Origin: Klebsiella pneumoniae
GTDB taxonomy: Bacteria > Myxococcota_A > UBA9042
Assembly (NCBI GenBank): GCA_945889325.1
Contig: CAMDBH010000002.1
Location: forward strand, 39,242 to 103,241
Direction of reading: 5' to 3'
DNA: 64,000 bases
A program made the position numbers and the translations under genes. Positions 1,715 to 62,774 of the stretch are shown piece after piece; position 1 is the stretch's first letter, and every line of letters begins with the position of its first letter. The notes beneath the pieces were generated by a model. That model had not been told where the DNA came from and ran no database searches. It worked only from the letters and a program-made list of their open reading frames with translations.

Positions 1715-1746
1715 ACGGAACCAGAGCTACTCGCCGTTGTGGCCAA

Positions 1747-17841: not shown

Positions 17842-17864
17842 ACAGTCGCGTTTTAGGAGTTCTC

Positions 17865-46015: not shown

Positions 46016-46918
46016 TCAGCGCGGTTTTAGCTCCAACGTGCGCTGCGAGGCTTTGGGGGCGCGCAGTTCATCCGCACCCGCGGCGGCGCGCATCGATAGC
46101 GGTCCGTTGACCCACTGCACCTGCATCGCAATTTGCTTTGCAGCATCCCACGTTGCAAAACCAACGTCGGTAAGTTGATCCAAGCGCGTGGACGCATTGG
46201 CCAGATCCACGCCAGCGACAATTTTGCCGCGAAGTTGTTCAATTTCATCTTGAATCTTCTGCTCTTCTACATCATCTGGCGCCACGGTCGCCGCGGGTAG
46301 AAAACCCGAAGGATCGACCTTGCGGCGCTCGATCTTGCGCGCAATTCGGCCCGCGGCCCAAGCCAGCAGTAGCTGTTCATGCCCATGATTTTTAGGCACA
46401 AGTTGCAGCAGCTTTTCGGCGTCCGCTTGTTCGCCAATCACGCCGAGCACAACAATGGCCTTGAAGCGGAAAAATTCATCTGGGCGCTCAAGCAACTGCC
46501 ACACTGCCGCAACGGCCTCGGGCGCCTTGGTGCGAGAAATACCTGCCAGCGCCCCGAGTTGCACACCGAGGTCGCGATCTTTCAACGCGTCAATCAGCGC
46601 CGGAACCACGCGCGGATCCTCAATTTGTGCCAGTAGTTCCGTAGCTTTGCGCCGTTCGTCGTTGCTGCCGCCGTGCAGGTCGCCCATCAACGTCGGCACG
46701 GCTTCAGCGCCCAAATGCACCACTTTGACCGTAGCGATGCCCGGCGTGCCCGGCGCATCTGCAAAGCGATCGGCAAGCAGGCGCGGATTCTCAACTTTTT
46801 GCTGATACACCACAATGGACGCGTAAACGATGCCCGCCAAGCCAGCCAGCCCGACTGCCACGAGTGCCAAACGAGCCCAAGCCGTTGGATTAAAAGAGCG
46901 ATCGTTTAGAGCAGGCAT
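46016..46918 (-). CDS. membrane-anchored HEAT/PBS-lyase-repeat protein
   Basis: N-terminal TM helix; repeated ~30-aa motifs (AVPTLMGDLHGGSNDERRKATELLAQIEDPRVVPALIDALKDRD…). Confidence 0.55.
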   Translation of the reverse strand: MPALNDRSFNPTAWARLALVAVGLAGLAGIVYASIVVYQQKVENPRLLADRFADAPGTPGIATVKVVHLGAEAVPTLMGDLHGGSNDERRKATELLAQIEDPRVVPALIDALKDRDLGVQLGALAGISRTKAPEAVAAVWQLLERPDEFFRFKAIVVLGVIGEQADAEKLLQLVPKNHGHEQLLLAWAAGRIARKIERRKVDPSGFLPAATVAPDDVEEQKIQDEIEQLRGKIVAGVDLANASTRLDQLTDVGFATWDAAKQIAMQVQWVNGPLSMRAAAGADELRAPKASQRTLELKPR

Positions 46919-46927
46919 CGTCGCTGG

Positions 46928-49900
46928 CTATTTGCAAGGCTCTGTTACCTGAATGTCATCGAGGTAAATGCCGCTGTATTTGTCATTGCCTTTGGCGTCA
47001 AACGAATCAAAAGAAAAGGTTATCTGGATCGTCTGGCCTTTGTACTTGGTCAAATCGAGCTTGTACGACTTCTTGACCTTGAAATCACCGGCCTTCATGT
47101 CTTTTTCCTTGTTGTCCTGCGTGCTTTTGGCGAAGATGACTTCTTTGCCGGCCGCCGTGGCAACCGTGATGTGAAAGTCCTCAAACAGCGGTTCGATGTC
47201 GATCCAAGCGTCAAATTGCAACCAGGCGCTTTTCTTCACGTCAGCCGAAAGCAAGATGTTGTTGGCGATCAAGGTACCGGCCACGCTTTTGCCGGGGTCG
47301 TCGTAATTGGTCTGCGCCGCATTGCCAAAATAGGCTTCATGGCCGCCGTTCAGGTATTTGTGCAATACGATCTGCCACTTGACCGCACCGGAAATCGGGG
47401 ATGCGGTCCAACTGACAAATTTGCTGGCCTCAAAAGTCTCCGACGGCAAGGCGTTGCCAGGTACACAGCAGGTCGGTCCGGGCGTTGCAGCCTCGTTGCA
47501 TTTGAACGTTTTTGGCTCAGAGAAGCTGCAGAAATACTTCTTACACACGTCCGGATTGACCGGCGCACATTTCGCGTCCTCAAGGCATTCGATCGGGCTG
47601 CAGAGAGTTTGCACGAGCAACTTGTCGACGTATGCGCCCTCAAAGTTGTTGTTGGTGTCGGTGCCGGCGTCGAACTCGAATTGCAGTTTGACGGTTTTGC
47701 CTTTCAGGCTGTCGGGTACGGCGACGACTACAGACTGGTATTTGCCGTTGGTGCTGCCGCCGATGCCATACGAAGACCAAGTCCAAACAGAATTTGTCTT
47801 GTCGTTGCTATCGGCCGGATTGTAAAAGCCGACGCGCATGCGATCGATCACCAGCCCAAGGGGCGGCAAATTGAACACGGTCGGATCGTTCCACTCTGTC
47901 GACAGTTTCAATTGAAAAGTCAGCACTGTCGTGCCGTTGGCCGGAATTGCAACGTTGCCGCTGCGCACGATCGCGCCTGGAACGGTGGTGCCGGCATTGT
48001 AGGTGCCGTCCTTGCCGAAGTTGAGCGAATAGGTGCCCTCGTTGGAGCTAAGCGCCGTCGCGTTCCATGTGATCGTGGCGTTGTACGGTTTGCCCACGCC
48101 GCCTTGCGCGTTGCCCTTGAGCGTGGTGGCGACCCAGCCTTCTGGCAATTTGCCCCCGTTTTCAAAGTTTTCAGCCGCCACCGATGGGTTGTCCGAGCAG
48201 CATTTGGGGTCCGTCAGCGTGTGCGTGCAAGACTGGGCGGCAGCATCGCATTTGTCGGTCGTGCAGCTGCTGCCGTCGTCGCAACCGGCGTCGTTGAGGC
48301 AGCAATCTTTTTTCGGCGTCCAAAAGCATTTCTTGTCGGCCGTGCAACCGGCAACCTGACAAGGTTTTGCGGGGCCGCAATCGTTGTCGGGACTTGGATC
48401 TTCGCACACGATGCCGCTACAAGCGACATCGACTTTGAAGTCGTCGATCGCGACACCCTTGTTGGTGTTGGCGTTGGCGTCGCCCGCATCAAATGCGAAG
48501 CAAACTTGGACCTTTTTGCCAGCGTATTTGTCCAAGTTCACTTTGATGGAGGTAAATTTGCCTTCGGTGGTGCCCTTGATCGCGTCTGAGGACCAGATCG
48601 TGTCGGTATTGAAGCCGCTGACCTTCAAATACACGCGCAACTCGTCGAGTTTTGGCATGTATCCGCACTTGCCCTTGTAGCAGTCCTCGCCGGGGTTGCA
48701 GTCTTTGGCGGCGGTGGCGATCGTGCATGCTTTGGCGCTGCCCGGCGGATTGACGTACTTGCTCGGATCCTGACCCGACCATTCCGTGGCCATATTCACC
48801 TGAAATTGCAGCAGGTTGTACAGCGTACCGACGCTCAACTGCACTTCTTGGCTGCAAACAGTCTCGGCCGGACCTTTGGTTTTCGGCAAAACCAAGGGAT
48901 CGTCGTAGCTGGTGCCCGACGCGTTGCCGAAGTAGAGCGCGCCGCTGCCTTTGGTGCCGCCCGATGCCGAGGCGTGCCACTGCACTGCTTTGGAATTAGA
49001 GTCAAAATGCGTCCATGAAGAAATGCCGGCGTCAAAAGTGTCGCTGGCGGCATTTTTGGCGGTGCAGCACGTCGGATTCTTGTCGTCCGGCACGTTGGTG
49101 CAGGCGCCTTTTTCAGCGCCTACGATGTTGCATTGGTCAACTGTGCAGTCGTTGTTGTCGTTGCAGTCGGGGCTGGCCAAGCAGCACCCCGGCTCCTTGT
49201 CGAAAAAGCACACGCCCTTGCCGGACAAGTTGTCGTAAAATGTACAGGAGTCCGGCGTGCAGCTGCTGGCGTCGGCCTTGCACGGCGTCGCGGCGTCGCA
49301 TTGTTGGAAACCGGCAGATTCCGGCTTGTCCGGTTCGGCAATGCACAGCGATTCCAGAGAGATGTCGTCGATGTACACGCCTTCATAGTTGTTCTTGGCG
49401 CCATTGTTGGTGTCAAAAATCCACTGGAATTTGAAGCTGTTGCCAAAGCCTGCCAAATTCACGATGTGGTGCTGCCAGCCGCCGGTCGATTTGCCAATCA
49501 CAATCGAGTCCCAAGCGACCTTGTCGTTGACCTTGAGCGTCAACAGATCTTTTTCCTTCACGCAGGCCATGCCGGCCTTTTGCTCGCTAAGGTCCAAACA
49601 ACTTTCACCTTGCTTGCAGCCCACGCAGCCGACGCCGACCTTCAAACCGCTGGCAACGAAAGTCGGCTCAGCCGCGACCCACAGCCAGTAATGCAAAATG
49701 AATTGCTTATTTTCGGAACCGGCCGGTACGTTGATCGAGGGTGAATCCAAGGTCGCGAAAATCGTCGCGCCCTGGCCGCCGCTGATGCATTGATTGGCAC
49801 CGACGGACGACGAATCGTAATTGTAGCATTCGTTACCCAAGTACATGGAAGTTTTGCCGTTGTGTGCGCGCTTGTTTTCCAAATGCCAACTGATGTTGGT

Positions 49901-50473
49901 GCCGGCCGGATTGACCTTGCCGGCAAAATTCTCCATAGAATTCTGCTCAAAACCCAAGTTGAGCAAGGTGACCTGACCGGGGCACGCGCCGACGATCGGT
50001 GCGTATTCGCAAGCGCCTTTGGCGACATCGCAACTGTTGGTGGTCAATGGATTCTTGTCATCGCAATCCTTGTTTTCACAGCATTTGTCCGGGTTTTTTT
50101 CCAGAACGCACTGTTTGTCCGCGTTGCAAGTGGCTGTTTCGCAGATCTTGGGTGAAAGTTTGGCGATGCAAAACGCGTTATCGGGGCATACGTCGTTGGG
50201 GCCAGTATCCTTTGGCACATCAGGGATTTTGGCGTCGTCCTTGGTTTCGATGGCGGGGCCGGTGTCAGTGGTCGCAGGCCCGCTATCGACGCCGGTGTCG
50301 TCGGTGTTGTTGACTTGTGTGTCGACGGCATCGCCTTCCGTGTCCCCGGCCGGCGCCGGGGCCGGCTCCACCGGCGTGCTGCAGCTAGCGCAACTCAACG
50401 CGGCGGCACTGGCCGCGATGGCCAAAAAATTGCAAAATAATTCATTTTTTTGATAGATTGAGCGCGACATCAT
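46928..50473 (-). CDS. giant lipoprotein paralog 1 (1181 aa): Dictyostelium-type CTDC cysteine-knot repeats alternating with MAM-like domains
   Basis: Lipobox (ALSCASC). Knots CC…DCDDKNPLTTNSC…, DCNDNNDCTVDQC…, GCDDGSSCTTDKC… Domain ends such as VYIDDISLESLC / AYVDKLLVQTLC / IYLDDIQVTEPC (MAM-like). Confidence 0.75.
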   Translation of the reverse strand: MMSRSIYQKNELFCNFLAIAASAAALSCASCSTPVEPAPAPAGDTEGDAVDTQVNNTDDTGVDSGPATTDTGPAIETKDDAKIPDVPKDTGPNDVCPDNAFCIAKLSPKICETATCNADKQCVLEKNPDKCCENKDCDDKNPLTTNSCDVAKGACEYAPIVGACPGQVTLLNLGFEQNSMENFAGKVNPAGTNISWHLENKRAHNGKTSMYLGNECYNYDSSSVGANQCISGGQGATIFATLDSPSINVPAGSENKQFILHYWLWVAAEPTFVASGLKVGVGCVGCKQGESCLDLSEQKAGMACVKEKDLLTLKVNDKVAWDSIVIGKSTGGWQHHIVNLAGFGNSFKFQWIFDTNNGAKNNYEGVYIDDISLESLCIAEPDKPESAGFQQCDAATPCKADASSCTPDSCTFYDNLSGKGVCFFDKEPGCCLASPDCNDNNDCTVDQCNIVGAEKGACTNVPDDKNPTCCTAKNAASDTFDAGISSWTHFDSNSKAVQWHASASGGTKGSGALYFGNASGTSYDDPLVLPKTKGPAETVCSQEVQLSVGTLYNLLQFQVNMATEWSGQDPSKYVNPPGSAKACTIATAAKDCNPGEDCYKGKCGYMPKLDELRVYLKVSGFNTDTIWSSDAIKGTTEGKFTSIKVNLDKYAGKKVQVCFAFDAGDANANTNKGVAIDDFKVDVACSGIVCEDPSPDNDCGPAKPCQVAGCTADKKCFWTPKKDCCLNDAGCDDGSSCTTDKCDAAAQSCTHTLTDPKCCSDNPSVAAENFENGGKLPEGWVATTLKGNAQGGVGKPYNATITWNATALSSNEGTYSLNFGKDGTYNAGTTVPGAIVRSGNVAIPANGTTVLTFQLKLSTEWNDPTVFNLPPLGLVIDRMRVGFYNPADSNDKTNSVWTWSSYGIGGSTNGKYQSVVVAVPDSLKGKTVKLQFEFDAGTDTNNNFEGAYVDKLLVQTLCSPIECLEDAKCAPVNPDVCKKYFCSFSEPKTFKCNEAATPGPTCCVPGNALPSETFEASKFVSWTASPISGAVKWQIVLHKYLNGGHEAYFGNAAQTNYDDPGKSVAGTLIANNILLSADVKKSAWLQFDAWIDIEPLFEDFHITVATAAGKEVIFAKSTQDNKEKDMKAGDFKVKKSYKLDLTKYKGQTIQITFSFDSFDAKGNDKYSGIYLDDIQVTEPCK

Positions 50474-50684
50474 TCCCCCTGACCAAAAGTCGAAACAGCC
50501 CGTTGCAGGCGTTTGGTTCAAACCATTCAACGCGCTCCCGCGCCGCTCAAGCGCCACTCCCATGGCGTTCAGACGGCGCCCCCGGGGCGCACCCTTTAAG
50601 TCTAACCCTGTCACAGCGAGGATGCAATTGTATAAGCCGCATAAATGTTCGCTGAATCGCAGCGCCAAAGGACCGCGGGCAGCG

Positions 50685-52997
50685 TTAAGGCGGGCAACCT
50701 TCCGCGCCGCTAAGCACGTAAAAACACTTGCCATTTGCGGCGCAAGTGTCGGTCGTGCACACGTCTTTGTCGTCGCAATCGCTGTCGACGGCACAGCAAG
50801 CCGGTATCTTGCCGCAGGCACAAGCGTTGTCCAAACACACGGGCGCCTCACAGGCACCGCAGACCTCGGCCTTGCACAAATCGATGCAAGCACAGCCGGT
50901 TGCGGTGCACTGCGGCGTTTGGCACGGGCCGCAGTTCAGATTTTTGCATTCGCCGTCCAAATAACAAGGCTTTTTGCTGCAGGCGATTTTGACGACAAAG
51001 TTGTCGACGATCGGGCCCAATTTGTCATTGACCTCGCCGTCGCCCGCGTCAAAGCTCAAGCAAACTTGAACGGTTTTGCCTTTCCAAGTATCCAAACTGA
51101 CCACAATGGGCATCCACGCCCCTTCGGTGGTGCCGGAAATGACGTCGCTGCTCCAAGCTTCATGAAAAGCGTTTTCAAAATAGACCTGTACAGCAAAATA
51201 GTCGAACTTGTTCTTGCCGACCAAAGGCGGATTCTTGTAATTGGCGGGCAACATGCCGGTCCATTCGGTTTCCAAAAACAGGTCAAATTGCACTAAGTTG
51301 AACAGAGTCCCTTCTTTGAGCTTGAGCTGAGGCGTGCACAAGGTGCCTTTGGGGCCAACTTCTTTGCCCAACGCAGCATCGTCGTATTTGCCAAAAGTTT
51401 CATCAGAAAATTGCAGCGCTTGCGAAGGCGGCGTCTCCGGCCCTCCCTTTGGATGCAAACGCCATTTGACCACGCCGCTGTTGCTGCCCAGCGCCGTCCA
51501 CAAATCGATGGCTGCGCCCTCAAAATCGTTGTTTTCCAGAATTTCTGACTTGCAGCACGCGGGTTTGGAGGCATCGGGCGTTTGGTTGCATTGGCCAGCC
51601 GTGCAGGTGTCGATTGTGCAGGCGATGCCGTCGTCACATTCCGAATTCAGCGTGCAACAGCCCGGTTTCTTATCAAAAAAGCACACGCCGCCGTTGGAAT
51701 TCTGGTATTGCGTGCACACGTCGGCGCTGCAGCCGTTGTTGTCGTCTGGGCACGGCGTTTGATCGTCGCAGACTGTGCCGGCCGTGGCGCAAATGGTTTC
51801 TACAACCACGTCGTCGAGATACACACCTTCGTAGGCATTTTTCAAGCCCGTTCCCGTACTAAAAAGCCATTGTAATTTGATGGTTTGTCCCGAATAGGCC
51901 GACAAATCGATGGCCATATGCTGCCACGCGTTCTTGGTCGTCTTGCCGATTTGCGTCGAATAAAACACCGCTTTGGCCGGCTGATTTGCCGTAAGCACCT
52001 GCAGCGACAACACATCTTTTTCAGGCAAGCATTGCGACGTGCCGTTGATGTTGACGCAGGCGCTAATCGCGTTGCACGGGGTTTTGCACACGCCCTTGGG
52101 CAAGGTGTCGGCATAAGGCGGCTCAGCGTCAAGGAAAAGCCAAAAGTGCAGTTCAGCCTTCTTGTCCTTGGGCAGTGCGTAGTCGGCCGTCGTCAACTGG
52201 GTGGACACCGCCATGGCGTCCTTGCTGGATTTGCAGCCGTTGTCGGGCGACATTGAATTGTCATAGGTATGACAGGCATTGCCAAAATACAGTGAAGTTT
52301 TGCCGCCATGTGCGCGGTACGTACTCGCCTGCCAGTGCACGCCCAAGTTGGTCGGCCCTTCGAGCGGTGTGAGCGACTCAAGGGTCCCGTCTTCAAAACC
52401 TGCTTTAGAAAACGTAACTTTGCCGCTGCAACAGTTGACCAGCGGCGTGTTGATGCACAAATGGCTGATGTTGTCGCATTTGTCGGTCGTGCATTCCTTG
52501 ATGTCGTCGCAATCGGCATCGCTGCAACAAGCGTCGGGTTTGGGCACCGCTTTGCAAACACCTTTGTCACAAGCTGCTTGTTGGCAGGGCGTCAATACCA
52601 ATTGATCCACGCAAGTTGTGGCGGTGACGCATTTGCCGATGTCCAACGGCTGTACTTCAAGACCGACGTCCTTGACGGCGTCGACTGGCACGACAATGTC
52701 GATGACATCCTTAACGGTTGTATCCAGTGTTTCGACCGCTTTGCTGTCTTGTTCGTCCGGCTGATCGGTGTCCTCTGACGGCAATTCCTCGTCGGTTGCG
52801 TCGCTATCGTCCTCTACGTCGGCCAAATCTGTACCGTCATCAATGACTTCGGCCGGCGGCGGCGTTTCCGCCGCTGGACTGCAGGCCAACATCAAAGTCC
52901 ACGAAAATAGGAAAATGGCCAACAGCGCCCAGCGCGGCGCTGGATTCACAGCTGACAGCATGGCACACAATCCCGTGTATTTCTTCATTAATCGCAC
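50685..52997 (-). CDS. giant lipoprotein paralog 2 (770 aa): CTDC cysteine-knot repeats plus MAM-like domains
   Basis: Lipobox (TLMLACS). DCDDIKECTTDKC, ECDDGIACTIDTC, DCDDKDVCTTDTC; YLDDVVVETIC. Start overlaps the stop of paralog 3 by 10 nt. Confidence 0.75.
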   Translation of the reverse strand: MRLMKKYTGLCAMLSAVNPAPRWALLAIFLFSWTLMLACSPAAETPPPAEVIDDGTDLADVEDDSDATDEELPSEDTDQPDEQDSKAVETLDTTVKDVIDIVVPVDAVKDVGLEVQPLDIGKCVTATTCVDQLVLTPCQQAACDKGVCKAVPKPDACCSDADCDDIKECTTDKCDNISHLCINTPLVNCCSGKVTFSKAGFEDGTLESLTPLEGPTNLGVHWQASTYRAHGGKTSLYFGNACHTYDNSMSPDNGCKSSKDAMAVSTQLTTADYALPKDKKAELHFWLFLDAEPPYADTLPKGVCKTPCNAISACVNINGTSQCLPEKDVLSLQVLTANQPAKAVFYSTQIGKTTKNAWQHMAIDLSAYSGQTIKLQWLFSTGTGLKNAYEGVYLDDVVVETICATAGTVCDDQTPCPDDNNGCSADVCTQYQNSNGGVCFFDKKPGCCTLNSECDDGIACTIDTCTAGQCNQTPDASKPACCKSEILENNDFEGAAIDLWTALGSNSGVVKWRLHPKGGPETPPSQALQFSDETFGKYDDAALGKEVGPKGTLCTPQLKLKEGTLFNLVQFDLFLETEWTGMLPANYKNPPLVGKNKFDYFAVQVYFENAFHEAWSSDVISGTTEGAWMPIVVSLDTWKGKTVQVCLSFDAGDGEVNDKLGPIVDNFVVKIACSKKPCYLDGECKNLNCGPCQTPQCTATGCACIDLCKAEVCGACEAPVCLDNACACGKIPACCAVDSDCDDKDVCTTDTCAANGKCFYVLSGAEGCPP

Positions 52998-55900
52998 TTG
53001 TTGAGTACCTTGACGTCGTCCACGAATACACCCTTGGTTCCGTTGGCGATGCTGTCACCCGTATTGAAGAGGAACTCGATCTGAATTTCTTTGTCTTTAT
53101 AGGGACTCAAGTCGAATTTCATTTCTTGCCAGTTGTTCATTTGGAACCCAGCGCTGGATTTTTTCCACAGCTGCGCCTTGCCGCCATTGGCGATAATTGA
53201 AACGGTCAGGTCGTCGTACGTGCCGCCTTCGGTGTCCATGTACAAATAAAATTGCAGGGTTGCGACGGTTGTGCTCGGCAACGTCAATTTGCCCCAAGTG
53301 GCGGTACCGTTGCTGGCACCAAAGTCATAATTTCCCGCACCGGGATCGCCGTAATACAGCGCGCCCGGCGGCGTTTTGCTCTCACTGGCGCTGCCCCACA
53401 ACTGCCAGCCCTTGGCCGCGCCGGCGCTGTTGCTGAAAACAAAGCCTTTTGGGTCGCCCTTGTCAAAGTCGTTGCTGTACAACTCTGCGGTGCAACAGCC
53501 GGGCGCACCTGTGCTTTTGTGCACGCAGGCCTTGTTCACGCAGGTGTCGATGCTGCATTTCACTTCGCCGTCGTCGCAATCTTTGTCGGCCGCGCAGCAA
53601 GTGTTGGCGTTGCTGCAGACGTTTTTGCTGCAAGTGTCTACGGTGCAAGCGTTTTTGTCGTCGCACTGGGCCGAACTCAAGCAACAGCCGCCAATCGGGC
53701 TGAACACGCATTTGCCGCCTGGTCCTGAACAAGTATCGATGGTGCAAGCATTATTGTCGTTGCAATCGCCATTGCCCATGCAGCAACCGACAATGGGTGA
53801 GAAGGGGCAAAATCCGTTGCTGCAAGCATCCGAAGTGCACAAGTTGCCGTCGCTGCAATCAGCCGCCGTTTTGCAGCAGTTGTTTGGGTAGACGCAAAGG
53901 CCGTCGCTACAGACAGTTGCCGTGCATTTGACGTTGTAGCCGGGGTTGCAGTTGATCGTCGGCGAACATTTTTTGGCTTGGCAAGAACTGCTCACGATCA
54001 CGTCGTCCAAATAAATCTGCGTGTTGGTCACGTTGCCGTTAAAAGCTAGTGTCACTTCAAAGAAAACCTGAATCGCCTTACCGGCCAGCGGCGACAGATC
54101 GATGGAGCTCGCGACCCAATTGTTGACCAAGACGTTGGAATTTTTGGTCGCCGTCAGGTTGAGCTGCGCGCCGTCGATAACCGTGTAAATTCGGACGTTT
54201 AAAGCAGCATTTGGCGTCACCGCCTGCAACTGAAACGTCAATGTCGCGTCTTTGCCGGACATCAAATTGAAAAAACCAGTCGCGGCCGTGGCCACAAATT
54301 TGGGCGAATTGGACACCGAATAACTTTCCAACTTGGCATGGCCAAACGCTAAAACCCCAATGTCGCCGTTCTGCCCCTTGACTGCTTTGTAGTGCCAGCC
54401 CACGCCCGGATCGGCGTTGGTGCTGGTCAGGGTAAACCCTTCGTCGCTGCCGCCAAACGTCGCGCTCATCGGTGTGGGCGAACAGCAGCCGGGTGAGGAC
54501 GACGAAGTGTAAACGCATTTGCCTTTGCTGCAGGCGTCTTTGGTGCAAGGGTTGAAGTCGTCGCAATCGCCGTCGCCGCTGCAGCAGCTGTTGTTGAAGC
54601 TACAAGCGCCGTCATTGCAGCTGCCAATCATGCATGGATCCGATGACTTGCATTCCGCATCGCCCTTGCAGCAGGTGTTGCCGTGCAGGCATTGGCCGCC
54701 GGGTTTGGGGCAAACATCGGCTGTGCAAGGGTTTTTGTCGTCGCAGTCGGTTTCCGACAGGCAGCAGTCCGGTTTGTTGGAATGCACGCACGCGCCACCG
54801 GCAACTGGGCATAAGTCCAATGTGCAAGCTTGCTTATCGTCACAATCCGCCGCTGACGCGCAGCAATCCGCTTTGAGCTTGTGGCTGCAAACGGGCAAAC
54901 CGGCAGGCGCTGCGGCGCAGGAATCTGTGGAACAGGCATTGCCGTCGTCGCAATCGCTCACATCGCCGCAACACCCGGAAGACACGGACACATCGTCGAT
55001 GTAAGCGCCTTCAAACGAGTTGGCCACCGCGTCCTTGCTGTCAAAGGCGAACAAAAGTTGAACTGATTTGCCGGCATACGCAGCGGCGTCGACTTCCACG
55101 TGTTGCCAAACGCCGTGGGTGCTGCCTTTGATCGTGCCGCTGGACCAGATTTCCTTGCTCGCCGCGCCGTCGACCACCGTGAGGGTAAGCACGTCTTGAT
55201 CGGGTGTTTCTTCGGTGTCCAACCAGAGCCAAAACGCGATATGCGGCAACACGCCGACATTGCTTGGCACTGCGAGTGGCGGCAAAGTCGCCGTCGCCGC
55301 GACTTTCTTGTTGTTGAAATAGTTGTGGGTCAGCGGATCGCCAAAATACAAGCTTTTGCCGCCGGAGATGTTGCGCGCGCCGTCAAAATTCCAACTGATG
55401 CCGGACTTGTAGACGTCGACAATCGCCACCCCGTCAGCCGTGCTGTCCAGGCCGATAATCCCAGTAACACTGCTGAGTTTGGTCTGCGCGACGTTGGGCA
55501 GGCAGGCCAGACAGCTGTACTTGTCACTGCTGCCGCCGGCTGGGAAGCAGCCAACTTGATCCGCACCCAAATCGACCGCACACACGTTGGCTTTGGCGGT
55601 CCAACTGCATTTTCCTTGATCACAGGTGCCGGTAGCGCACGGAATTTTGCAGTCAGCGGAAACCTTGCACAACGAACTGTGGACGGTTTTGCTTATAGGT
55701 CCGGTGTCTTGCACGATATCTGGGCTATCGATTGGCGTGTCCGGTGGTGTTGCGACGTCTTCTGGTGCATCTTCCGGCGCCACATCGGGCGGCGCGGCGT
55801 CGACCGCGCTGTCTGCCAAGATGTCGCTAAGCGAGTCTGCTGGGGTGTCGGCCACTTCTTGGACGCCCGTATCGCTGACTTTACTGTCTTTTTCTGAATC

Positions 55901-56044
55901 GGCCGCTGGGATGTCCGTGGCGACAGCGTCGTCGGGCGCTTGGGTCACTTCGGCGGTGCCACAGCCGCAAACGCTCAGGCAGGATAGTGCCAGTGCAATC
56001 ACAAGGTTCTGCTGATTGACCCAAGACAAGGGGCGCATCTTCAT
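52988..56044 (-). CDS. giant lipoprotein paralog 3 (1018 aa): 10 CTDC cysteine-knot repeats plus MAM-like domains
   Basis: Lipobox (LSCLSVCGC). DCDDGNACSTDSC, DCDDKQACTLDLC, DCDDKNPCTADVC, DCDDFNPCTKDAC, CSDGNLCTSDAC, DCNDNNACTIDTC, QCDDKNACTVDTC…; AYIDDVSVSSGC, VFVDDVKVLNKC. Confidence 0.75.
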   Translation of the reverse strand: MKMRPLSWVNQQNLVIALALSCLSVCGCGTAEVTQAPDDAVATDIPAADSEKDSKVSDTGVQEVADTPADSLSDILADSAVDAAPPDVAPEDAPEDVATPPDTPIDSPDIVQDTGPISKTVHSSLCKVSADCKIPCATGTCDQGKCSWTAKANVCAVDLGADQVGCFPAGGSSDKYSCLACLPNVAQTKLSSVTGIIGLDSTADGVAIVDVYKSGISWNFDGARNISGGKSLYFGDPLTHNYFNNKKVAATATLPPLAVPSNVGVLPHIAFWLWLDTEETPDQDVLTLTVVDGAASKEIWSSGTIKGSTHGVWQHVEVDAAAYAGKSVQLLFAFDSKDAVANSFEGAYIDDVSVSSGCCGDVSDCDDGNACSTDSCAAAPAGLPVCSHKLKADCCASAADCDDKQACTLDLCPVAGGACVHSNKPDCCLSETDCDDKNPCTADVCPKPGGQCLHGNTCCKGDAECKSSDPCMIGSCNDGACSFNNSCCSGDGDCDDFNPCTKDACSKGKCVYTSSSSPGCCSPTPMSATFGGSDEGFTLTSTNADPGVGWHYKAVKGQNGDIGVLAFGHAKLESYSVSNSPKFVATAATGFFNLMSGKDATLTFQLQAVTPNAALNVRIYTVIDGAQLNLTATKNSNVLVNNWVASSIDLSPLAGKAIQVFFEVTLAFNGNVTNTQIYLDDVIVSSSCQAKKCSPTINCNPGYNVKCTATVCSDGLCVYPNNCCKTAADCSDGNLCTSDACSNGFCPFSPIVGCCMGNGDCNDNNACTIDTCSGPGGKCVFSPIGGCCLSSAQCDDKNACTVDTCSKNVCSNANTCCAADKDCDDGEVKCSIDTCVNKACVHKSTGAPGCCTAELYSNDFDKGDPKGFVFSNSAGAAKGWQLWGSASESKTPPGALYYGDPGAGNYDFGASNGTATWGKLTLPSTTVATLQFYLYMDTEGGTYDDLTVSIIANGGKAQLWKKSSAGFQMNNWQEMKFDLSPYKDKEIQIEFLFNTGDSIANGTKGVFVDDVKVLNKCD

Positions 56045-56248
56045 CACTCCAAAGCAACAAGACACAACTGGGAACTTTTGGCTCCGCGCCCATGCGAGGT
56101 CAAGCCCAAGCTACGGTTCACCCCCACCGCCACGCGCTTTCAAGCGCAGCCGGACGCTGCACTGTAGCATGCCAGCGCCCCGTGTATCAAATCGGCGGAC
56201 GGCCGCAAATATGGGCGCGAGGTATGCCGATCGCCGGCCCGCAACCTT

Positions 56249-57952
56249 TCAAAATCCAAAGCGAACTGCGCCTTCGACCCGCCACGCATTGTCGGCCGCC
56301 AGGCCTTGGGGCGTGGCCAGCGCGCCGCCCGGAAACAAGTACGTCGCTCGCAGCAATGCGCCGGTGCCGCTGGGCTGGCGGTATTCTAAGCTCAATTCGG
56401 GCTCGAAGCCGAGCAAGTTGCCCTTGCCCGGTGTGGCTTCCGAAGACGCCGCTACTGCCGCTAACAAGCCGAGTTCGAGCGCCAAGCTATCGCCGTGGCC
56501 CTTGTCCAGCAGTTCATAGCGATACGCGGGCTTCAAATACCAGGCATTGGCCACGGCACCAATAAGGTCGCGAAATAACAGACCATCCACGCGGTAATTG
56601 CGGTGGAAGTGAAAGCCCGAGGAAAACGTTTTGGGCGAGGCGCTGAGTTCTGCCCCGTTGCGCAGATTGTCGGTGTCCAACACGCCAAAACCGCCGCTGC
56701 GATCGCCGCTTGCAAAGCCCGCGTCGACCAAAACGTCGCCCAATCCCCGTTGCCATTTTGCCTTGAAAGCGGCACCGGCAGACAGCAAAAGTAGCGGCGA
56801 TTCTGTGCCCGATCGCGGGTCGGTTCGGCCAAAACTGCCGTAAATACCGGCCGATTCTCCCTGCAATCGCAGGGGCGATCCGCCGAGGGTTCCGTTCCAA
56901 TCCAACGCCAGTTGCGCGATGATCAAGCGGCCATTGCGTGGAACTAGCTGATCGCATGACGCATTGGCGATGCAGTCTTCATGGTCCGCCCGACTCGCCA
57001 CATCCTGTGTCTGGTATTGCGCGGCGGCTGACCATTTCAGGCCGGGTTCGCCGTTCAATTTACCGCCTGTGATTTCAGCCACCCAGCGTGTGACATCGGC
57101 CGCGTCCTCCAAGCCATAGGCAATCGAACCAGTGCCGGTTTGGACGATCCGAGATTCAGCTTTATGATCAAAAGCATTCGGCAGTGTGCTGGCAAATGGC
57201 AACGTGCCAAGTGAATCGCGCGCCAACATCAGGCGCAGGCCGAACAAGTCGCCGCGCAGCGACACGCGGTCGACGTCGGACTGAAAATCGCCCAGCAAGT
57301 CGCCGCCTGCGTTGCGCAACATCCCCAAGCCGAAGTGATCGCCTGTGCGGCCGATTTCCAGTTCCGCCAGCCCAAACAAGCGCGCGTGCACCCAAAGTCG
57401 GCGAACGGCGGCCGCATTGCGCACGTCGCCTTGGCTGGGCATGCCGCTCAGGTTTTCAACAGCGCGCGCTTCTCTGTCCGCGATCGTCGGGTTGTTGTCG
57501 CCGCCAAGCACAGTTGCGCCTGCCAAGTCGATTTGGCTATTGATGTCAAACCATTCACCGATATGCAGCGTCGGATCGATGCGCAAGCGCAGGTCGGCTG
57601 TGGCCATTTTGCCGCCGCTGGCACCTGGCAGCACGCTGTCGCTGCCGTGGCGCAGGTCCAAACGCGGCGGCAATTGCTGAACATCTTTGACCAAACGGAT
57701 GCCGCTCAGCATTTCAGTACGCGAGCGAAAGTGGCCGTGCAGGTCCAGAGATACCAGCGGCGAAATGCTGGGCAGGGAGGCCGGCAGCAGGATTTCGGCT
57801 GGACTTGCTGTGTTGGTTGGCGCGGTTGCAAGGGGTGACGGGGCGGCCTCGCCAGCCAGCGCGACGCGCGCGCACAGCGCAGTCGCGACCGCGAGCACGA
57901 CGCGTACCTGTGCGCTGGGGCGGGTGGAAAAAGCCGAGAAGAACAGGGGCAT
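56249..57952 (-). CDS. outer-membrane beta-barrel protein of unknown function
   Basis: Signal peptide (…VLAVATALCARVALAGE). C-terminal …GAVRFGF. Gly/aromatic-rich alternating pattern. Confidence 0.5.
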   Translation of the reverse strand: MPLFFSAFSTRPSAQVRVVLAVATALCARVALAGEAAPSPLATAPTNTASPAEILLPASLPSISPLVSLDLHGHFRSRTEMLSGIRLVKDVQQLPPRLDLRHGSDSVLPGASGGKMATADLRLRIDPTLHIGEWFDINSQIDLAGATVLGGDNNPTIADREARAVENLSGMPSQGDVRNAAAVRRLWVHARLFGLAELEIGRTGDHFGLGMLRNAGGDLLGDFQSDVDRVSLRGDLFGLRLMLARDSLGTLPFASTLPNAFDHKAESRIVQTGTGSIAYGLEDAADVTRWVAEITGGKLNGEPGLKWSAAAQYQTQDVASRADHEDCIANASCDQLVPRNGRLIIAQLALDWNGTLGGSPLRLQGESAGIYGSFGRTDPRSGTESPLLLLSAGAAFKAKWQRGLGDVLVDAGFASGDRSGGFGVLDTDNLRNGAELSASPKTFSSGFHFHRNYRVDGLLFRDLIGAVANAWYLKPAYRYELLDKGHGDSLALELGLLAAVAASSEATPGKGNLLGFEPELSLEYRQPSGTGALLRATYLFPGGALATPQGLAADNAWRVEGAVRFGF

Positions 57953-58103
57953 TCGGGAAGGACTCCGGCGGCGCCGTGCTGCAAAAGCAGGAGAAAAATA
58001 GGACTTTTTCGCTTTGTCGGCGTCCAGCGCTGCACACGTGGCGGCGGAGTTTACGGCCCAAGCGCCGATCGTTCAAGCCGATTTGGCAACAAATCGGCCA
58101 GCG

Positions 58104-58147
58104 GCGCTCAGAGGCTGTGAAATATTCATTTCACAGCGTCTGAGCGG
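58104..58147. promoter_or_regulatory. 44-bp near-perfect palindrome: 20-nt arms with 2 mismatches and a 4-nt spacer. Candidate operator or RNA hairpin upstream of the OM beta-barrel gene.
   Basis: gcgctcagaGGCTGTGAAAT attc ATTTCACAGCgtctgagcgg. Core 10-bp arms are perfect. Confidence 0.5.
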
Positions 58148-58302
58148 GGTCAGGTATTAGCAGTTTCTGCATGGACGCTTCGTAAGATAATAATATTACT
58201 GGAACCAGAAATTTGAATCCGAGCCCACTTTGGGTCGATTGGCAGAAATTGCCAATACCAGACCCCAATCGAGAGCGTGAAAAAAGGATTTTTCACACGC
58301 GC

Positions 58303-60567
58303 TCAGCGCGGCCGCAGGATCTCTTGCGGTCGTTGGTAAACGCTCAGGATCGGTACACCGTCGATCGCCGATTGATCAACCGGCACCGTGGATTGATAGC
58401 TTTGCCACAACTCGAGTTCATAATCGTCGTGATCTTTTTGATGGTGGTACGTTCCGAGCGCTGAATGTTCGCTCGCTTCTGTCGTGTAGCGCAGGTCGCG
58501 GCGCAGCCAGCCTTCGCGCAGGTACATCGCGTAGGCGCCCCAAGCCGATTTGTGAAACCATATCGTGCTGTTAGGCGGTGCGCGTTTGTTGATTTCGGCC
58601 AAACCTTCGCGCGTGGATCCACCCCAAAATTGCCGCTGCATTTGCGCTTGCGCCGCACCGCGCACGCCGCCAATCAATTCATTGTAGTACGCGCTGCCGT
58701 CGGGGTGGACGTCCGCCGTCGCTTGCGCCGCCGGAAGCAGCACGATCAAGATCAACAGCAGCGAGGCAAAAGCGGGAACCAGGGTTTGCCGCCACCACGC
58801 CGGGCGGTTGTTCGGCAAAAGTGGCACCCAATGGCCGCTGACCGGATCGACGGCGCTCAAATCGGGAGGGGCAAAAAGCGCAGCCCAAACAAAATGCAAC
58901 CCGCGCGCCGCGATGAGCAACATGAATGGATACGCGACCATCCAATGCTTGGTGCCGCCAAAAATGGGCGTGCCGGGCAAAGAGATCAACGCCATGGGCC
59001 ACACAACCGACAGCACAAGCAGGCGATCAAACGACCGCTGCTCGGCGCCCAGATCGGCCACGGCTGTGCGGGCGGCGTCTGGCGGCACAACCGCGCGCTC
59101 GCGGCGAAAATGGGCCACCGATCGCGCGGCAAACACGCACAGGCCAAGGACAAAAGGTGCCAACAGCGTAATGGGCCAAGTAAGGGCCGTCATCACCCAT
59201 GAGAACGAAGTCGGAAACGGCGGGTAGGCCAAAATCCGCCCGAAATACTGCTGCATGTAATGTTCATGGTGCAAATGGAATTCGATCCAGTGCAGCAAAT
59301 TGTCCAGCGTGTCGACCCACAACAGCGGCCAACCAACCACCAAGATGACGGCACCTACAGGCAACATAAGGAAAAAAGCGGTCGGTACCGGCGGCAGACA
59401 CAAGCTGAAAACCTGAGCCATGACCAGCACACCAACGGCCAGCGCGGCGAGCGGATGCACAAGCCACCCCAAGATCGCCGCCAAAAGCACAAGCAGAACA
59501 AGCCTTTTTAGCTGCTGGCGCTCGATTTTGGCCATCGCCAATTGGATTCTACCCTCAGCGGCCGCGTCCCAGAGCCAGTGCAGTAGCAAAGGCACCGGCA
59601 AGAATAGGGCGTTGTGCTTGGCCAACAGGGAAATACCCCACAATATCGCTGTAGGCCACAGCCAAGCCCGCGAACGCAGGGCGCGATGCCACATCAGCGT
59701 AGTCACAAACAGCAGCGCCGTGATCGTTGTGTCAAAGGCGCACAAATGTGCGTGCCAAAACGGTTGAGGAATGCACAGATAGCCCACACCAGCGGCGACC
59801 GCGAATGGGCGAGCGACTTGGCCGTAACCCGTTGACGTTTCGCGGCTCGCGAACAACAAGCGCGCCGCCAAATACAAAAATGCGACGAGCAAGCTGGCAA
59901 AAACCGCATTTGGAAAGCGCAACGCCGCGGATTCAGACAGGACGTAACTCAAGCGCGTTTCGACAAATTCGCAACCGGTGCGCAAATACAGTTCGCCGTC
60001 CAAGGTGCCGGGGGCCTGGCAACGTGCGGTAAGTTTGGCTAAATCGGTGCCGCCCTCCAATCGGATGCTCGCGCGGCCGGAAGTACGCTCGACGACTTCA
60101 CCCTGCGCGAGGCGGCGGTTTTTGGGGTCCGGCGACAGATCGCCGAGCTGCGGTTTGAGCAGCGCGACTTTGGCACCGACCGCAAAACCATGTGTCGGCG
60201 CCAGCTGTTGCACGTCGGCGAATACTTCCTGATCGTCCAAGTGGAAATTGGCCGCCGGGCGCAGTTTGCGGCCCAGCGTGCGCCAAGACAGCCCAAAAAG
60301 GATTTTGTCCAGAGGTGGATGTTCGGCATTCTGATGCCAAGTGCCCAGAATTTCAGCGCGTTGCAGGGCGAGCTTGCGCTCGGATTTGCCGGCAGTTAGG
60401 CGATAAAACCACTCCGAATACGTTTCGGCGTGGCCGAAATAGAAGGCTTCATCGCGCACAAAGCCCATGTCGTTGGTCGCGACCAAAACGCTGAGCGACG
60501 CGACAAAAAGGGCCGCGGCGACGAGATAATCTGTGAAATTGTTGCGCTCGACATGCGCCATCCGCAT
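58303..60567 (-). CDS. GT-C glycosyltransferase of the protein O-mannosyltransferase (PMT/GT39) family, 754 aa, polytopic
   Basis: Loop-1 acidic motif FVRDEAFYF; downstream AEHPPLDKILFGL (compare PMT DVHPPLAKML). At least 10 predicted TM helices and a C-terminal soluble domain. Confidence 0.65.
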   Translation of the reverse strand: MRMAHVERNNFTDYLVAAALFVASLSVLVATNDMGFVRDEAFYFGHAETYSEWFYRLTAGKSERKLALQRAEILGTWHQNAEHPPLDKILFGLSWRTLGRKLRPAANFHLDDQEVFADVQQLAPTHGFAVGAKVALLKPQLGDLSPDPKNRRLAQGEVVERTSGRASIRLEGGTDLAKLTARCQAPGTLDGELYLRTGCEFVETRLSYVLSESAALRFPNAVFASLLVAFLYLAARLLFASRETSTGYGQVARPFAVAAGVGYLCIPQPFWHAHLCAFDTTITALLFVTTLMWHRALRSRAWLWPTAILWGISLLAKHNALFLPVPLLLHWLWDAAAEGRIQLAMAKIERQQLKRLVLLVLLAAILGWLVHPLAALAVGVLVMAQVFSLCLPPVPTAFFLMLPVGAVILVVGWPLLWVDTLDNLLHWIEFHLHHEHYMQQYFGRILAYPPFPTSFSWVMTALTWPITLLAPFVLGLCVFAARSVAHFRRERAVVPPDAARTAVADLGAEQRSFDRLLVLSVVWPMALISLPGTPIFGGTKHWMVAYPFMLLIAARGLHFVWAALFAPPDLSAVDPVSGHWVPLLPNNRPAWWRQTLVPAFASLLLILIVLLPAAQATADVHPDGSAYYNELIGGVRGAAQAQMQRQFWGGSTREGLAEINKRAPPNSTIWFHKSAWGAYAMYLREGWLRRDLRYTTEASEHSALGTYHHQKDHDDYELELWQSYQSTVPVDQSAIDGVPILSVYQRPQEILRPR

Positions 60568-60589
60568 TTGCTCCAGAAGATGAGATCAA

Positions 60590-62017
60590 TCAAGGTTCTT
60601 CGGCGTCGGGCTCGTCGTCTTCACCCGGTTTGGGCGCAATGAGGCTGTATTTTCTGGCCAAGCGCCTAAAATGCTTGCGATCGACTTCCGCCTCGCGCGC
60701 CGCTTGACTCAAGTTACCGGAATGTCGGGTCAAAAGTGCTGCTAGGTATTCTTTCTCAAACGCACCAAGCCAAGTCTCCTTGGCCACTTTGAACGTCGAG
60801 TCCGACATCAGCGGCGCAGCGGTGTTGCCGCGCACCGGTTCGGTGGGGTGAAATTCGGCCTTGCGCGCGCGTGCCGGCCCATAACCTGCGATGTGATCTG
60901 GCAAATCTTCCAGCTGAATCAAATCACCTTCGGCAAACGAGCAGGCCCTCTCGATGACGTTGCCCAGTTCTCGCACATTGCCCGGCCAATCGTAGGCCAT
61001 GAGCGCATTGTTGGTATCGGACGCTATGCCTTTGACACGTTGGGCATTTTCACTGGCAGCACCGATGCGGTTGAAAGGCGCCGTTTTGAGCATGTGATGC
61101 ACAAGTAGCTGAATATCCTGCTTGCGTTCGCGCAGCGGCGGCAACTTGAGGCGCACAACGCCCAGACGGTAAAACAGATCTTCGCGAAATCGCCCTGCTT
61201 TGACTTCCGCCACCAGATCGCGGTTGGTCGCGGCGATCACGCGCACGTCGATCTTGATCGGCCGGTTGCCGCCGACGCGGCGCACCTCACGTTGTTCAAG
61301 CGCGCGCAACAGCTTGGGCTGCAAATCCAAAGCCAATTCGCCGATTTCATCCAAAAATATGGTGCCGCCCTGGGCCATTTCAAACAGGCCCTGACGCGAG
61401 GCCAGCGCGCCGGTGAAACTGCCCTTTTCATGGCCAAATAGCTCAGATTCGATCAGATTTTGTTGGACGGCGCCGCAGTCGAACACGATAAATGTCTGGT
61501 TTGCCCGCTGCGAGCACTGGTGAATCGTGCGCGCCACGACCTCCTTGCCAGTGCCGGTTTCACCTTCAAGAACAACAGTCGCCCCCGTCGGCGCGATTTT
61601 TTCAATCACGGCCATCATGCGCCGCATCGATTCCGATCGCCCGACGATGCCGCGCAAGCTTTCACTGGAACTGGGTTGAATATCTACTTTTTCGCTGACA
61701 ACGGAGAAGCGAAACTGGGTATTGCCCAAGCGAATCGGCGTGCCGCTTTTAAGCCACGCATCGCGTACCCGCACGCCTTTGACCCAAGTGCCCGTGGCCG
61801 ACTTGAGATCTTCAATGTGAAAGTCGTCACCTTCCATAAAAATTCTGGCGTGATAGCGACTGACACGGTCGTCGTCGACCACCAGATCGTTGTCTTCCAT
61901 CGCGCCCAAAGTAACGCTGGGCGTATCAAAAATGTACTCAGCGACCGTGCCATCGGCATCTGTGCGGATCAGACGGCTGCGGCGAATGGTGACGGAAGTA
62001 GTAAAGGTTTCCGACAC
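60590..62017 (-). CDS. sigma54-dependent transcriptional activator with N-terminal FHA domain
   Basis: FHA ([33 protein letters not shown]); AAA+ EBP core ([18 protein letters not shown]…GAFTGA…[15 protein letters not shown]); C-terminal HTH. Confidence 0.85.
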
Positions 62018-62057
62018 TTAACCTCTTGAACTCACTGTAGGCGCTCGCGTTGCTCGA

Positions 62058-62097
62058 CACCATCTGGCGTTACTTTTAAGCATCTGGCGTTACTTTT
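62058..62097. repeat. perfect 20-bp tandem direct repeat (catctggcgttacttttaag x2) in the 96-bp dksA / sigma54-activator intergenic region
   Basis: Exact duplication visible at 62058-62077 and 62078-62097. Confidence 0.7.
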
Positions 62098-62113
62098 AAG
62101 CCGGGCTTTGGCC

Positions 62114-62536
62114 CTACATTTCGAACGAAGTCATGCGCTGGCGACGTTTTTCGTACATTTTTTCAACGTGTTCCTGCTTTTCTTTGCAGTCGATGCACAA
62201 ATTGGCTTCAGGTCTGGCGACCAATCGCGCAGAACCGATGTAATTTTCGCACTCTTCGCACAAATTGTAGTCACCGCTTTCAATGCGCCGCAGGGCCTTG
62301 TCGATTTTCTTGAGCAATGTCGCGTCGCGGTCGCGCAGCCGAAATTCAAACGCCTGATCGTAGCCGACAGACGACAAATCCATTTCATCGGCCACGCGCA
62401 ATTCATCGGGATCTTGGTTGTGTTCGGCGCTGCGCACCGCCTGCAGGATGCGCTCGCGCTTCTCAACCAGCGACAAACGTTGCAGTTCAATCTCTGGTTC
62501 TGTCAGCGGTACCAATTCTAATGTTGATTCTGGCAT
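62114..62536 (-). CDS. dksA: DksA/TraR-family C4 zinc-finger transcription factor
   Basis: Coiled-coil N-terminus. CxxC-N17-CxxC (CEECENYIGSARLVARPEANLCIDC). Confidence 0.8.
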   Translation of the reverse strand: MPESTLELVPLTEPEIELQRLSLVEKRERILQAVRSAEHNQDPDELRVADEMDLSSVGYDQAFEFRLRDRDATLLKKIDKALRRIESGDYNLCEECENYIGSARLVARPEANLCIDCKEKQEHVEKMYEKRRQRMTSFEM

Positions 62537-62660: not shown

Positions 62661-62774
62661 TTATTCCGCGCCGGGTGCCGTTTGCGATTCAAATTGATGC
62701 GGCACCGGTGTTGGCGATTGTAGGGCCGCGGACCGCTTAGGGTCAATAGCAAGTTGCAGCCGAAATCTCGGGCA

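Follow-up and report, generated by a model that had tools for sequence, protein, structure and literature searches.

A divergent GT-C glycosyltransferase paired with a sigma-54 activator among envelope genes of an uncultured freshwater Myxococcota lineage

The described enzymes closest to the one considered here are polytopic glycosyltransferases of the GT-C fold. ArnT (family GT83, PDB 5f15/5ezm) is the lipid A 4-amino-4-deoxy-L-arabinose transferase; the protein O-mannosyltransferases (PMTs) of family GT39 include yeast Pmt1/2/4 and actinobacterial Pmt; and multi-component systems such as Gtr and GT136 combine a periplasmic GT-C enzyme with a polyprenyl-phosphate sugar synthase and a flippase. 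Known periplasmic GT-C systems usually come with a polyprenyl-phosphate sugar synthase and a flippase (PMC11127046). Here we analyse a 754-residue GT-C protein encoded in a 64,000-nucleotide stretch of the lake-metagenome contig CAMDBH010000002.1 (the whole stretch is called the window below), which belongs to a metagenome-assembled genome (MAG) of an uncultured Myxococcota bacterium. An initial annotation had read this gene and its neighbours, eight co-directional genes in all, as a single sigma-54-controlled locus in which a PMT-like enzyme glycosylates three giant lipoproteins. We lean, with some reserve, towards a different account, in which several envelope and regulatory modules, each transcribed on its own, have been passed down vertically as chromosomal neighbours within one uncultured freshwater Myxococcota lineage and do not make up a single sigma-54 operon. 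This preference follows from the domains of the parts, the lack of a sigma-54 promoter, the breaks at the gene junctions in relatives, a synteny that is not specific to the unit, and the lack of a donor pathway nearby.

Compared with these systems, the window protein has the common GT-C fold of ArnT with about 12-13 transmembrane helices, and also resembles it in the juxtamembrane helices of the first periplasmic loop and in the C-terminal periplasmic domain. Unlike ArnT, it carries a conserved beta-barrel insert of about 100 residues with a Cys pair in the first loop, it lies in a putative operon with a sigma-54 activator, and it has no arnBCADEF-type neighbours of the kind found in the E. 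coli arn operon; no arnBCADEF-like gene occurs among the larger window open reading frames (ORFs) scanned. With the GT39 PMTs it shares an invariant Asp-Glu pair in loop 1, an acidic motif whose importance in PMTs is cited (as reference 78) in PMC7801869. It differs from them in having no PF02366, PMT_4TMC or MIR match, in that PMTs are not its nearest structures, and in that the organism is diderm. It resembles the Gtr and GT136 enzymes as a periplasmic GT-C protein with a presumed lipid-linked monosaccharide donor. In contrast to those systems, the larger window ORFs scanned include no polyprenyl-phosphate sugar synthase or flippase, nor a Ser/Thr kinase or rpoN; likewise, the called genes of seven related loci (L001-L007) include no polyprenyl-phosphate glycosyltransferase or flippase genes.

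Domain calls were made by Pfam and NCBIfam searches of the window proteins. The genes, in the direction of transcription, are the following:
62775-63671, minus strand: Rce1-like protease (Pfam).
62114-62536, minus strand: DksA/TraR-family C4 zinc-finger protein, 140 aa (Pfam DksA_N and zf-dskA_traR, both above cut-offs).
60590-62017, minus strand: sigma-54 enhancer-binding protein (EBP) with a non-canonical N-terminal FHA domain, 475 aa (Sigma54_activat PF00158, E 8e-71; FHA, E 6e-17; AAA_lid_14).
58303-60567, minus strand: divergent polytopic glycosyltransferase with a GT-C fold, 754 aa, its gene following that of the EBP after 22 nt.
56249-57952, minus strand: 18-strand outer-membrane beta-barrel, TIGR04551-like, 567 aa (called from its fold; the family-model alignment is below cut-off).
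52988-56044, minus strand: giant lipoprotein G1, 1018 aa with 77 Cys (Dicty_CTDC, E 1e-14; InhA-like_MAM, E 9e-10; choice_anch_J, E 7e-11).
50685-52988, minus strand: giant lipoprotein G2, 767 aa, starting at the ATG of a TAATG overlap (InhA-like_MAM, E 6e-9; choice-of-anchor-J).
46928-50473, minus strand: giant lipoprotein G3, 1181 aa (InhA-like_MAM PF20773, E 1e-12; Dicty_CTDC PF00526, E 3e-7; choice-of-anchor-J).
46016-46918, minus strand: HEAT-repeat protein of 300 aa with a hydrophobic segment at its N-terminus, its gene following G3 after 9 nt (HEAT_2, E 1e-13).
45088-45822, minus strand: OmpR-type response regulator (Pfam Response_reg and Trans_reg_C), outside the span of the initial annotation.
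43899 to about 45107, minus strand: HAMP histidine kinase (HAMP, HisKA, HATPase_c), also outside that span.

The eight ORFs, from dksA to the HEAT gene, are present in the ORF listing where the initial annotation placed them, and its gene-level names (GT-C-type glycosyltransferase, outer-membrane barrel, FHA-containing EBP, DksA, giant Cys-rich lipoproteins, HEAT protein) are essentially correct. The DksA/TraR protein scores 93.7 on TIGR02420, under the cut-off of 115.5. The view of the eight genes as one distinct unit did not hold up. In the same listing, nine successive minus-strand genes fill 46.0-63.7 kb, and the co-directional run goes beyond the eight-gene set, spanning about 24.8 kb to 63.7 kb. 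Conservation of gene order is also wider on both sides, and sigma-70-like promoter candidates are placed inside the cluster, upstream of G1, G3 and the barrel gene.

Gene order was compared in one genome per GTDB species, which yielded 80 loci, and neighbours were located by tblastn with the window proteins. The relatives are all uncultured Myxococcota MAGs, for the most part from freshwater lakes. A near clade (34 loci) has GT-C proteins at least 44% identical to that of the window, and a far clade (50 loci, including Lujinxingia vulgaris) has proteins 30-38% identical. In the near clade, the EBP gene is directly upstream of the GT-C gene in 28/31 loci and the barrel gene directly downstream in 27/33, while G1 is downstream in 21/30; DksA, upstream of the EBP gene, and Rce1 are found in 15/30 and 16/28, respectively. 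The far-clade count is 0 for each of these, that is, none of the 50 homologues at 38% identity or less has any of the partners EBP, DksA, Rce1, barrel or G1. Conservation of the neighbourhood thus stands for the near clade, in which the order EBP, GT-C, barrel, giants recurs, but does not extend to the distant homologues. A neighbour-joining tree places the full order as ancestral to the near clade, with exceptions in about five sub-clades. One locus keeps only DksA, EBP and GT-C (L004); another group keeps EBP, GT-C and barrel with the giants gone (L013-L018); in L017 and L021 the GT-C gene stands behind 2-oxoacid dehydrogenase genes, and in L022 it is also outside the EBP context. A reciprocal metagenome search with a G2 alignment returned eight loci, and four of them have giant clusters without GT-C and EBP. 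In L092 (5662-13085), an amidohydrolase gene is followed by a TIGR04551-like barrel, G1 and G2; in L094 and L095, G1-G2 stand behind unrelated genes; and in L098, a G3-like gene and a HEAT gene follow thymidine phosphorylase. Considering the exceptions among the GT-C loci together with the giants that occur without GT-C, every junction can break. The EBP-GT-C pair is the robust unit, with the junction that is least often broken and, in the near clade, 22-300 nt between the two genes.

The genes around the cluster are conserved to the same extent. In the loci that keep the order, PyrG, TP_methylase, MoaE, UvrD and Rce1 are conserved upstream, and the response regulator, histidine kinase, DUF3473 deacetylase, FadL-like protein, MutY, patatin, GlmM, PdxJ and YjeF are conserved downstream of the HEAT gene; the OmpR-type regulator and kinase, for instance, follow the HEAT gene in the same order in L089 and L090. 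Order in the near clade is thus kept just as well over the housekeeping genes between PyrG and YjeF. This extent over unrelated genes, together with the giant clusters that lack GT-C and EBP, weakens synteny as evidence of function. At 41647-43853, the DUF3473 polysaccharide deacetylase adjoins a FadL/Toluene_X-type outer-membrane protein, and both are syntenic in L090.

The far clade has recurrent neighbours of its own, namely UvrA, a Ser/Thr kinase, a BamB-like propeller and TrmD, which we considered as a functional clue; none points to an acceptor. In one deep sub-clade (L046, L048, L055, L060 and L083), the GT-C gene lies directly downstream of a Ser/Thr kinase gene (about 575-733 aa) on the same strand, with UvrA further upstream. 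A PP2C-type protein clusters near the GT-C gene in a few loci.

The initial annotation also expected sigma-54 control and proposed to look for -24/-12 promoters upstream of 56044 and 57952. A weighted consensus scan (TGGCACG-N4-TTGCW, maximum 20.5) was applied, and candidate sites were footprinted against a relative, L088, whose GT-C protein is 89% identical to that of the window. The relevant sites are listed below:
62717-62746, minus strand: sigma-70-like promoter candidate of dksA, TTGACC-18-TACAAT, 10/12 match to consensus.
58105-58266, no strand assigned: inverted-repeat-rich part of the GT-C/barrel spacer, with a hairpin of 19-nt arms at 58105-58146 and 25-nt arms at 58146-58170 and 58242-58266.
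58085-58100, minus strand: sigma-54 -24/-12-like match TGGCCGATTTGTTGCC, score 17.0/20.5, about 130 nt upstream of the barrel gene; rejected.
58048-58076, minus strand: weak sigma-70-like promoter candidate of the barrel gene, TTGAAC-17-TAAACT, 8/12 match and below the scan reporting threshold.
56161-56190, minus strand: sigma-70-like promoter upstream of G1 from the promoter scan, TTGATA-18-TACAGT with TG before the -10; hexamers identical in L088.
50599-50627, minus strand: sigma-70-like promoter candidate upstream of G3, TTGCAT-17-TAGACT; hexamers identical in L088, spacer variable.

No -24/-12 site above the chance or shuffle expectation was found upstream of any gene of the locus. The match at 58100-58085 was rejected as a promoter because 27 sites in the window score at least 17.5 and because its TGGCC reads TAGCT in L088, the GG of this best candidate being lost; in addition, none of 28 other orthologous GT-C/barrel spacers has it in the corresponding position. 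The top -24/-12 sites show no positional conservation among those 28 spacers or in 22 other barrel/G1 spacers. Mean best scores upstream of the EBP gene, dksA and G3 are 14.7-15.8, compared with 14.3 +/- 1.2 when one 250-nt spacer is shuffled. Sigma-54 control of the locus is thus not supported, and these scans show no site there that resembles a target of the EBP. The sigma-70-like candidates fared better in the same footprint: both hexamers of the G1 promoter stay while many spacer positions differ in L088, and the barrel-gene candidate has an identical -35, a -10 that is one base off (TAAACT vs TAGACT) and a spacer that differs at three positions.

Several other elements were tried as regulatory sites and dropped. 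Ahead of G1, a TGGCATGC...TGCA site is wrongly spaced and does not keep its GG in L088. TGTGAAA...TTTCACA palindromes, considered as activator sites, fall inside a segment of about 175 nt that is absent from L088. A GCCGATTTG-N4-CAAATCGGC palindrome upstream of the barrel gene is degraded in L088; its 9-mer is over-represented in the window (7 matches vs 1.7 expected). The roughly 175 nt missing from the GT-C/barrel spacer of L088 include the inverted-repeat segment at 58105-58266, which has no second copy in the window and may be a small insertion or an element resembling a miniature inverted-repeat transposable element. In addition, the 96-nt dksA/EBP spacer contains a perfect 2 x 20-nt tandem duplication, CATCTGGCGTTACTTTTAAG, at 62061-62101.

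The GT-C protein itself has no Pfam match even at E = 10, with PMT (PF02366), PMT_4TMC and MIR included in the search. Its 65 homologues all come from Myxococcota-type MAGs, and a few carry the NCBI name 'glycosyltransferase family 39'. When 35 relatives were scanned singly, PMT_2 matched 13/35, PMT 5/35 (best E 1.7e-6) and STT3 2/35, with no PMT_4TMC or MIR match in any. Pfam PMT_2 also covers ArnT-like enzymes. An AlphaFold model built from the family alignment (pLDDT 88, pTM 0.90) shows a polytopic GT-C fold with an acidic residue pair in the first extracytoplasmic loop. In Foldseek, STT3, AglB, Pmt4, ArnT and DPY19 were matched at similar, weak TM-scores. ArnT is the closest solved structure by a narrow margin over AglB, Pmt4 and STT3, and is 13% identical to the window protein. 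A sequence link to solved GT-C enzymes was sought and not established: a PDB sequence search with the protein detected no chain, and profile comparison (hhalign) with E. coli ArnT is marginal (E 0.015, probability 3%), its weak alignment setting D279 and K317 against E. coli ArnT residues in the 86-195 region. Because the protein has no Pfam match of its own and its relatives' matches and its fold point only to this broad group, it cannot be filed under GT39 or GT83; on the predicted model, it is a divergent GT-C enzyme of the PMT_2 neighbourhood. The 'GT39/PMT-like' label of the initial annotation draws its support only from the relatives and the fold, and not from a match of the window protein itself.

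Residues R38-D39-E40 in the first loop, E82-H83-P84, D279 and K317-H318-N319 are invariant in the family alignment, which is consistent with an active enzyme. The beta-barrel insert (residues about 100-205, in the first periplasmic loop) is kept across the whole family with Cys183 and Cys199 conserved, and gives partial fold matches to helicase 1B, membrane fusion protein and MreC-type barrels. Since ArnT is only narrowly ahead of AglB and Pmt4, the acceptor is not inferable from the nearest structure. Indeed, the TMTC proteins, which are assigned to an O-mannosylation pathway, also have ArnT as best template (PMC7801869); ArnT as nearest structure therefore says little about the acceptor. Literature searches on PMT or GT39 in Myxococcus returned nothing. 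The family is well conserved, uncharacterised and found throughout Myxococcota.

The AAA+ domain and motifs of the regulator encoded 22 nt upstream mark it as a genuine sigma-54 activator: Walker A is at residue 152, a GAFTGA-type loop (GSFTGA) at 199 and DEIGE at 223. FHA-domain sigma-54 activators of Myxococcus xanthus were reportedly described by Jelsbak, Givskov and Kaiser in 2005. The window EBP shares with the M. xanthus proteins the FHA domain, the AAA+ sigma-54 interaction domain, the helix-turn-helix and the GAFTGA-type loop; it differs in the loss of the Arg of the GR motif in all orthologues and of the Asn in the window sub-clade, in its pairing with a GT-C gene, and in having no cognate -24/-12 promoter near. 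In FHA domains, the GR Arg is a phosphate contact, and Rad53 and EmbR are reported to lose binding when it is mutated. In an alignment to GarA and EmbR (residues 35-80 region), this position is Ala in the window EBP, and it is A, S or G in the window EBP and all 29 orthologues; the conserved Asn is Thr in the window sub-clade, and SRxH is retained. The domain is, judged from this alignment, FHA-like and non-canonical, so that the gating by Ser/Thr phosphorylation proposed in the initial annotation is weakened and should not be assumed.

The three giants were described as paralogues, which is confirmed for G2 and G3 (35% identity over 756 aa in pairwise comparison); G1 is built of the same modules. 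Of the CTDC/MAM domains named for them, Dicty_CTDC (PF00526) is found, but the MAM-type match is InhA-like_MAM (PF20773) and not PF00629. Each giant has a signal peptide with a lipobox Cys within the first 40 residues, by pattern match (ALSC and VCGC in G1, MLAC in G2, ALSC in G3), in agreement with their description as lipoproteins, and G1 has 8 C..D..C..D.C motifs. Past the lipobox, each has a low-complexity linker of 67-98 aa (S+T 13-19%, P 10-13%, D+E 22-33%), so the linkers are acidic, Pro-containing and only moderately Thr/Ser-rich. G1 and G2 are more likely joined by a 1-nt TAATG stop/start at 52988, which recurs in L005 and L088, than by the 10-nt overlap first reported; the alternative GTG start of G2 at 52997 gives 770 aa, and the L088 orthologue has 767 aa. 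For G3, the start at 50473 agrees with gene callers, and the longer GTG ORF (to 50893) is probably non-coding, because in our reading of the alignment all extension differences from L088 change amino acids. The G3 leader (50474-50640) is 88% identical to L088 over 159 nt; it was considered as an RNA element and set aside, since it is conserved only in this 89% relative and has no Rfam match. The HEAT gene follows the last giant directly, as first noted, at a spacing of 9 nt rather than 10, and it is found after the last giant in seven other loci (L020, L089, L090, L093, L096, L097 and L098). Two more proteins of about 1,200 aa with Cu-binding_MopE repeats are encoded at 17685-21251 (plus strand) and 30722-34459 (minus strand), one of them with Kelch and TSP3 in addition; giant Cys-rich secreted proteins are abundant in the source genome.

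The barrel protein has no Pfam match of any kind. It aligns end to end with TIGR04551 (E 2e-55) at 188.7 bits, below the curated cut-off of 300, and its barrel fold is seen in the predicted structure, with 18-strand porins as best fold matches and with long low-confidence loops and a 65-aa N-terminal extension. The Slam architecture is a 14-strand DUF560 barrel adjoining its lipoprotein substrates; a Slam-type lipoprotein translocon was considered for this barrel and rejected on the lack of a Pfam match and on the 18-strand, not Slam, fold matches. The protein is 10-13% identical to 18-strand channels (Campylobacter major outer membrane protein, the OprD/Occ family and AlgE) and differs from them in its own loops and N-terminal extension; unlike these named channels, it falls in the uncharacterised TIGR04551 group, for which literature searches returned nothing. 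The giants and the TIGR04551 barrel are lineage-typical surface proteins and are not unusual in kind. At the far end of the window, the first 2 kb have 51% G+C, compared with 55-62% elsewhere, and within 1-3509 the ORFs 854-1714, 1705-2409 and 2766-3509 have no Pfam match.

We propose the following for the locus. The dksA gene would be expressed from its own sigma-70-like promoter. The sigma-54 activator with the degenerate FHA domain and, 22 nt on, the divergent GT-C gene would form a two-gene operon; the 18-strand porin-like barrel would be a further module; G1 and G2 would be translationally coupled through the TAATG overlap; and G3 with the HEAT protein, and the OmpR-type regulator with its histidine kinase, would make up the remaining modules. 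The GT-C protein would be an inner-membrane enzyme whose loop with the invariant Asp-Glu pair faces the periplasm; there it may take a sugar from a polyprenyl-phosphate carrier and attach it to an acceptor in the envelope, the genes for donor synthesis and the flippase being located elsewhere. Considering that every Myxococcota homologue has the same GT-C architecture whether or not giants are near, the acceptor is most likely a general envelope component (glycolipid, lipopolysaccharide or glycan, or a broad protein set) and not these three lipoproteins specifically. The giants would be surface or periplasmic adhesin-like lipoproteins made from ordinary promoters of sigma-70 type, possibly controlled by the adjacent OmpR-type regulator, and the sigma-54 targets of the EBP would lie elsewhere in the genome. 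Several observations weigh against this proposal. The order EBP, GT-C, barrel, G1, G2, G3, ancestral to the near clade, has been kept although the giants are 40-50% identical, and five loci (L019, L024, L032, L033 and L051) hold it without the upstream housekeeping block. In L007 and L029 (45-46% identity), EBP and GT-C are followed directly by a different CTDC/MAM giant of 1,500 aa, with no barrel; the rearranged loci L004, L016, L017 and L021 nevertheless have a CTDC giant within 10 kb. The promoter calls come from consensus matches and a single close relative, and read-through across modules is possible. The general-acceptor view is drawn from distribution and not from measurement.

The model of the initial annotation is a cassette of substrate plus enzyme, in which a Pmt-like periplasmic O-glycosyltransferase decorates the Asp/Thr/Pro-rich linkers of the giants as they emerge from Sec and before outer-membrane sorting. 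The GT-C fold with its invariant R-D-E in the first periplasmic loop, the PMT and PMT_2 matches of relatives and the linker after each lipobox are consistent with it, as are the position of the GT-C gene upstream of G1 in 21/30 near-clade loci, the pairing of GT-C with a different giant in L007 and L029, and the CTDC giants that turn up again close to rearranged GT-C genes; ArnT as best structure is no argument against a protein acceptor, as the TMTC proteins illustrate. However, the window protein has no PMT, PMT_4TMC or MIR match, and the linkers are more acidic than Ser/Thr-rich. The 50 distant homologues have the same architecture and no giants nearby; in the near clade, GT-C occurs without giants (L004, L013-L018, L017, L021, L022) and giants occur without GT-C (L092, L094, L095, L098), and synteny is as wide over unrelated housekeeping genes. 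The initial annotation had named generic PMT_2 or ArnT likeness without synteny to the giants as what would speak against it; such likeness is what we find, and synteny to the giants is present in the near clade. Action of the enzyme on the giants has no specific support in the distribution or in its generic PMT_2 type, and we disfavour it as a minority reading of low probability. About equally likely is an ArnT-like modifier of lipid A, lipopolysaccharide core or another outer-membrane glycolipid or glycan, paired with the AlgE/OprD-like barrel, with the giants as bystanders. PMT_2 is the commonest Pfam match among the relatives, and the barrel follows GT-C in 27/33 near-clade loci and stays in L013-L018 once the giants are lost. 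Yet ArnT leads AglB, Pmt4 and STT3 only slightly as a structural match, E. coli ArnT scores weakly in the profile comparison, no arn-type, donor-synthesis or flippase genes occur among the larger window ORFs scanned, the barrel travels with giants and without GT-C in L092, and no far-clade homologue adjoins a barrel.

A further possibility, which we hold to be less probable than either of these, is that EBP and GT-C form a signalling unit, in which the GT-C protein is a membrane sensor or tether for the degenerate FHA domain and the status of glycosylation or of the polyprenyl-phosphate sugar sets distant sigma-54 transcription. No junction in the region is better conserved than that of EBP and GT-C (28/31), which is kept in L004, where all else is lost; the absence of the phosphate-binding Arg from the FHA domain of every orthologue suggests that the ligand is something other than phospho-Thr; and in the far clade, GT-C directly follows a Ser/Thr kinase in the five loci given above. 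On the other hand, the basis of this idea is gene order alone, each association traces to a single ancestral event, and the GT-C protein keeps all its catalytic-looking invariant residues and would be an enzyme in any case. Kinases and FHA-containing EBPs are numerous in Myxococcota, and chance adjacency to a GT-C gene is not negligible. Put more broadly, a Myxococcota-specific GT-C family might be wired to Ser/Thr-signalling-type regulators instead of a dedicated substrate, and might couple envelope glycosylation or lipid-carrier status to transcription; this too is improbable.

The separate-modules account that we favour leaves a finding of modest novelty, a divergent sub-family of GT-C enzymes in which both the insert and the operon partner are unusual. 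Were the initial annotation right, a diderm would possess a cassette dedicated to protein O-glycosylation; that would be a notable finding, and the evidence does not favour it. What is of interest is a GT-C family whose catalytic loop holds an unusual beta-barrel insert and whose window member escapes Pfam, and one lineage in which the putative operon partner of the gene is a sigma-54 activator with an FHA domain that no longer has the phosphate-binding Arg. The identity of the GT-C acceptor would fill a gap in myxobacterial envelope biology and would provide a test of a glycosyltransferase as a signalling partner. The giants and the barrel are of interest for the ecology of planktonic Myxococcota.

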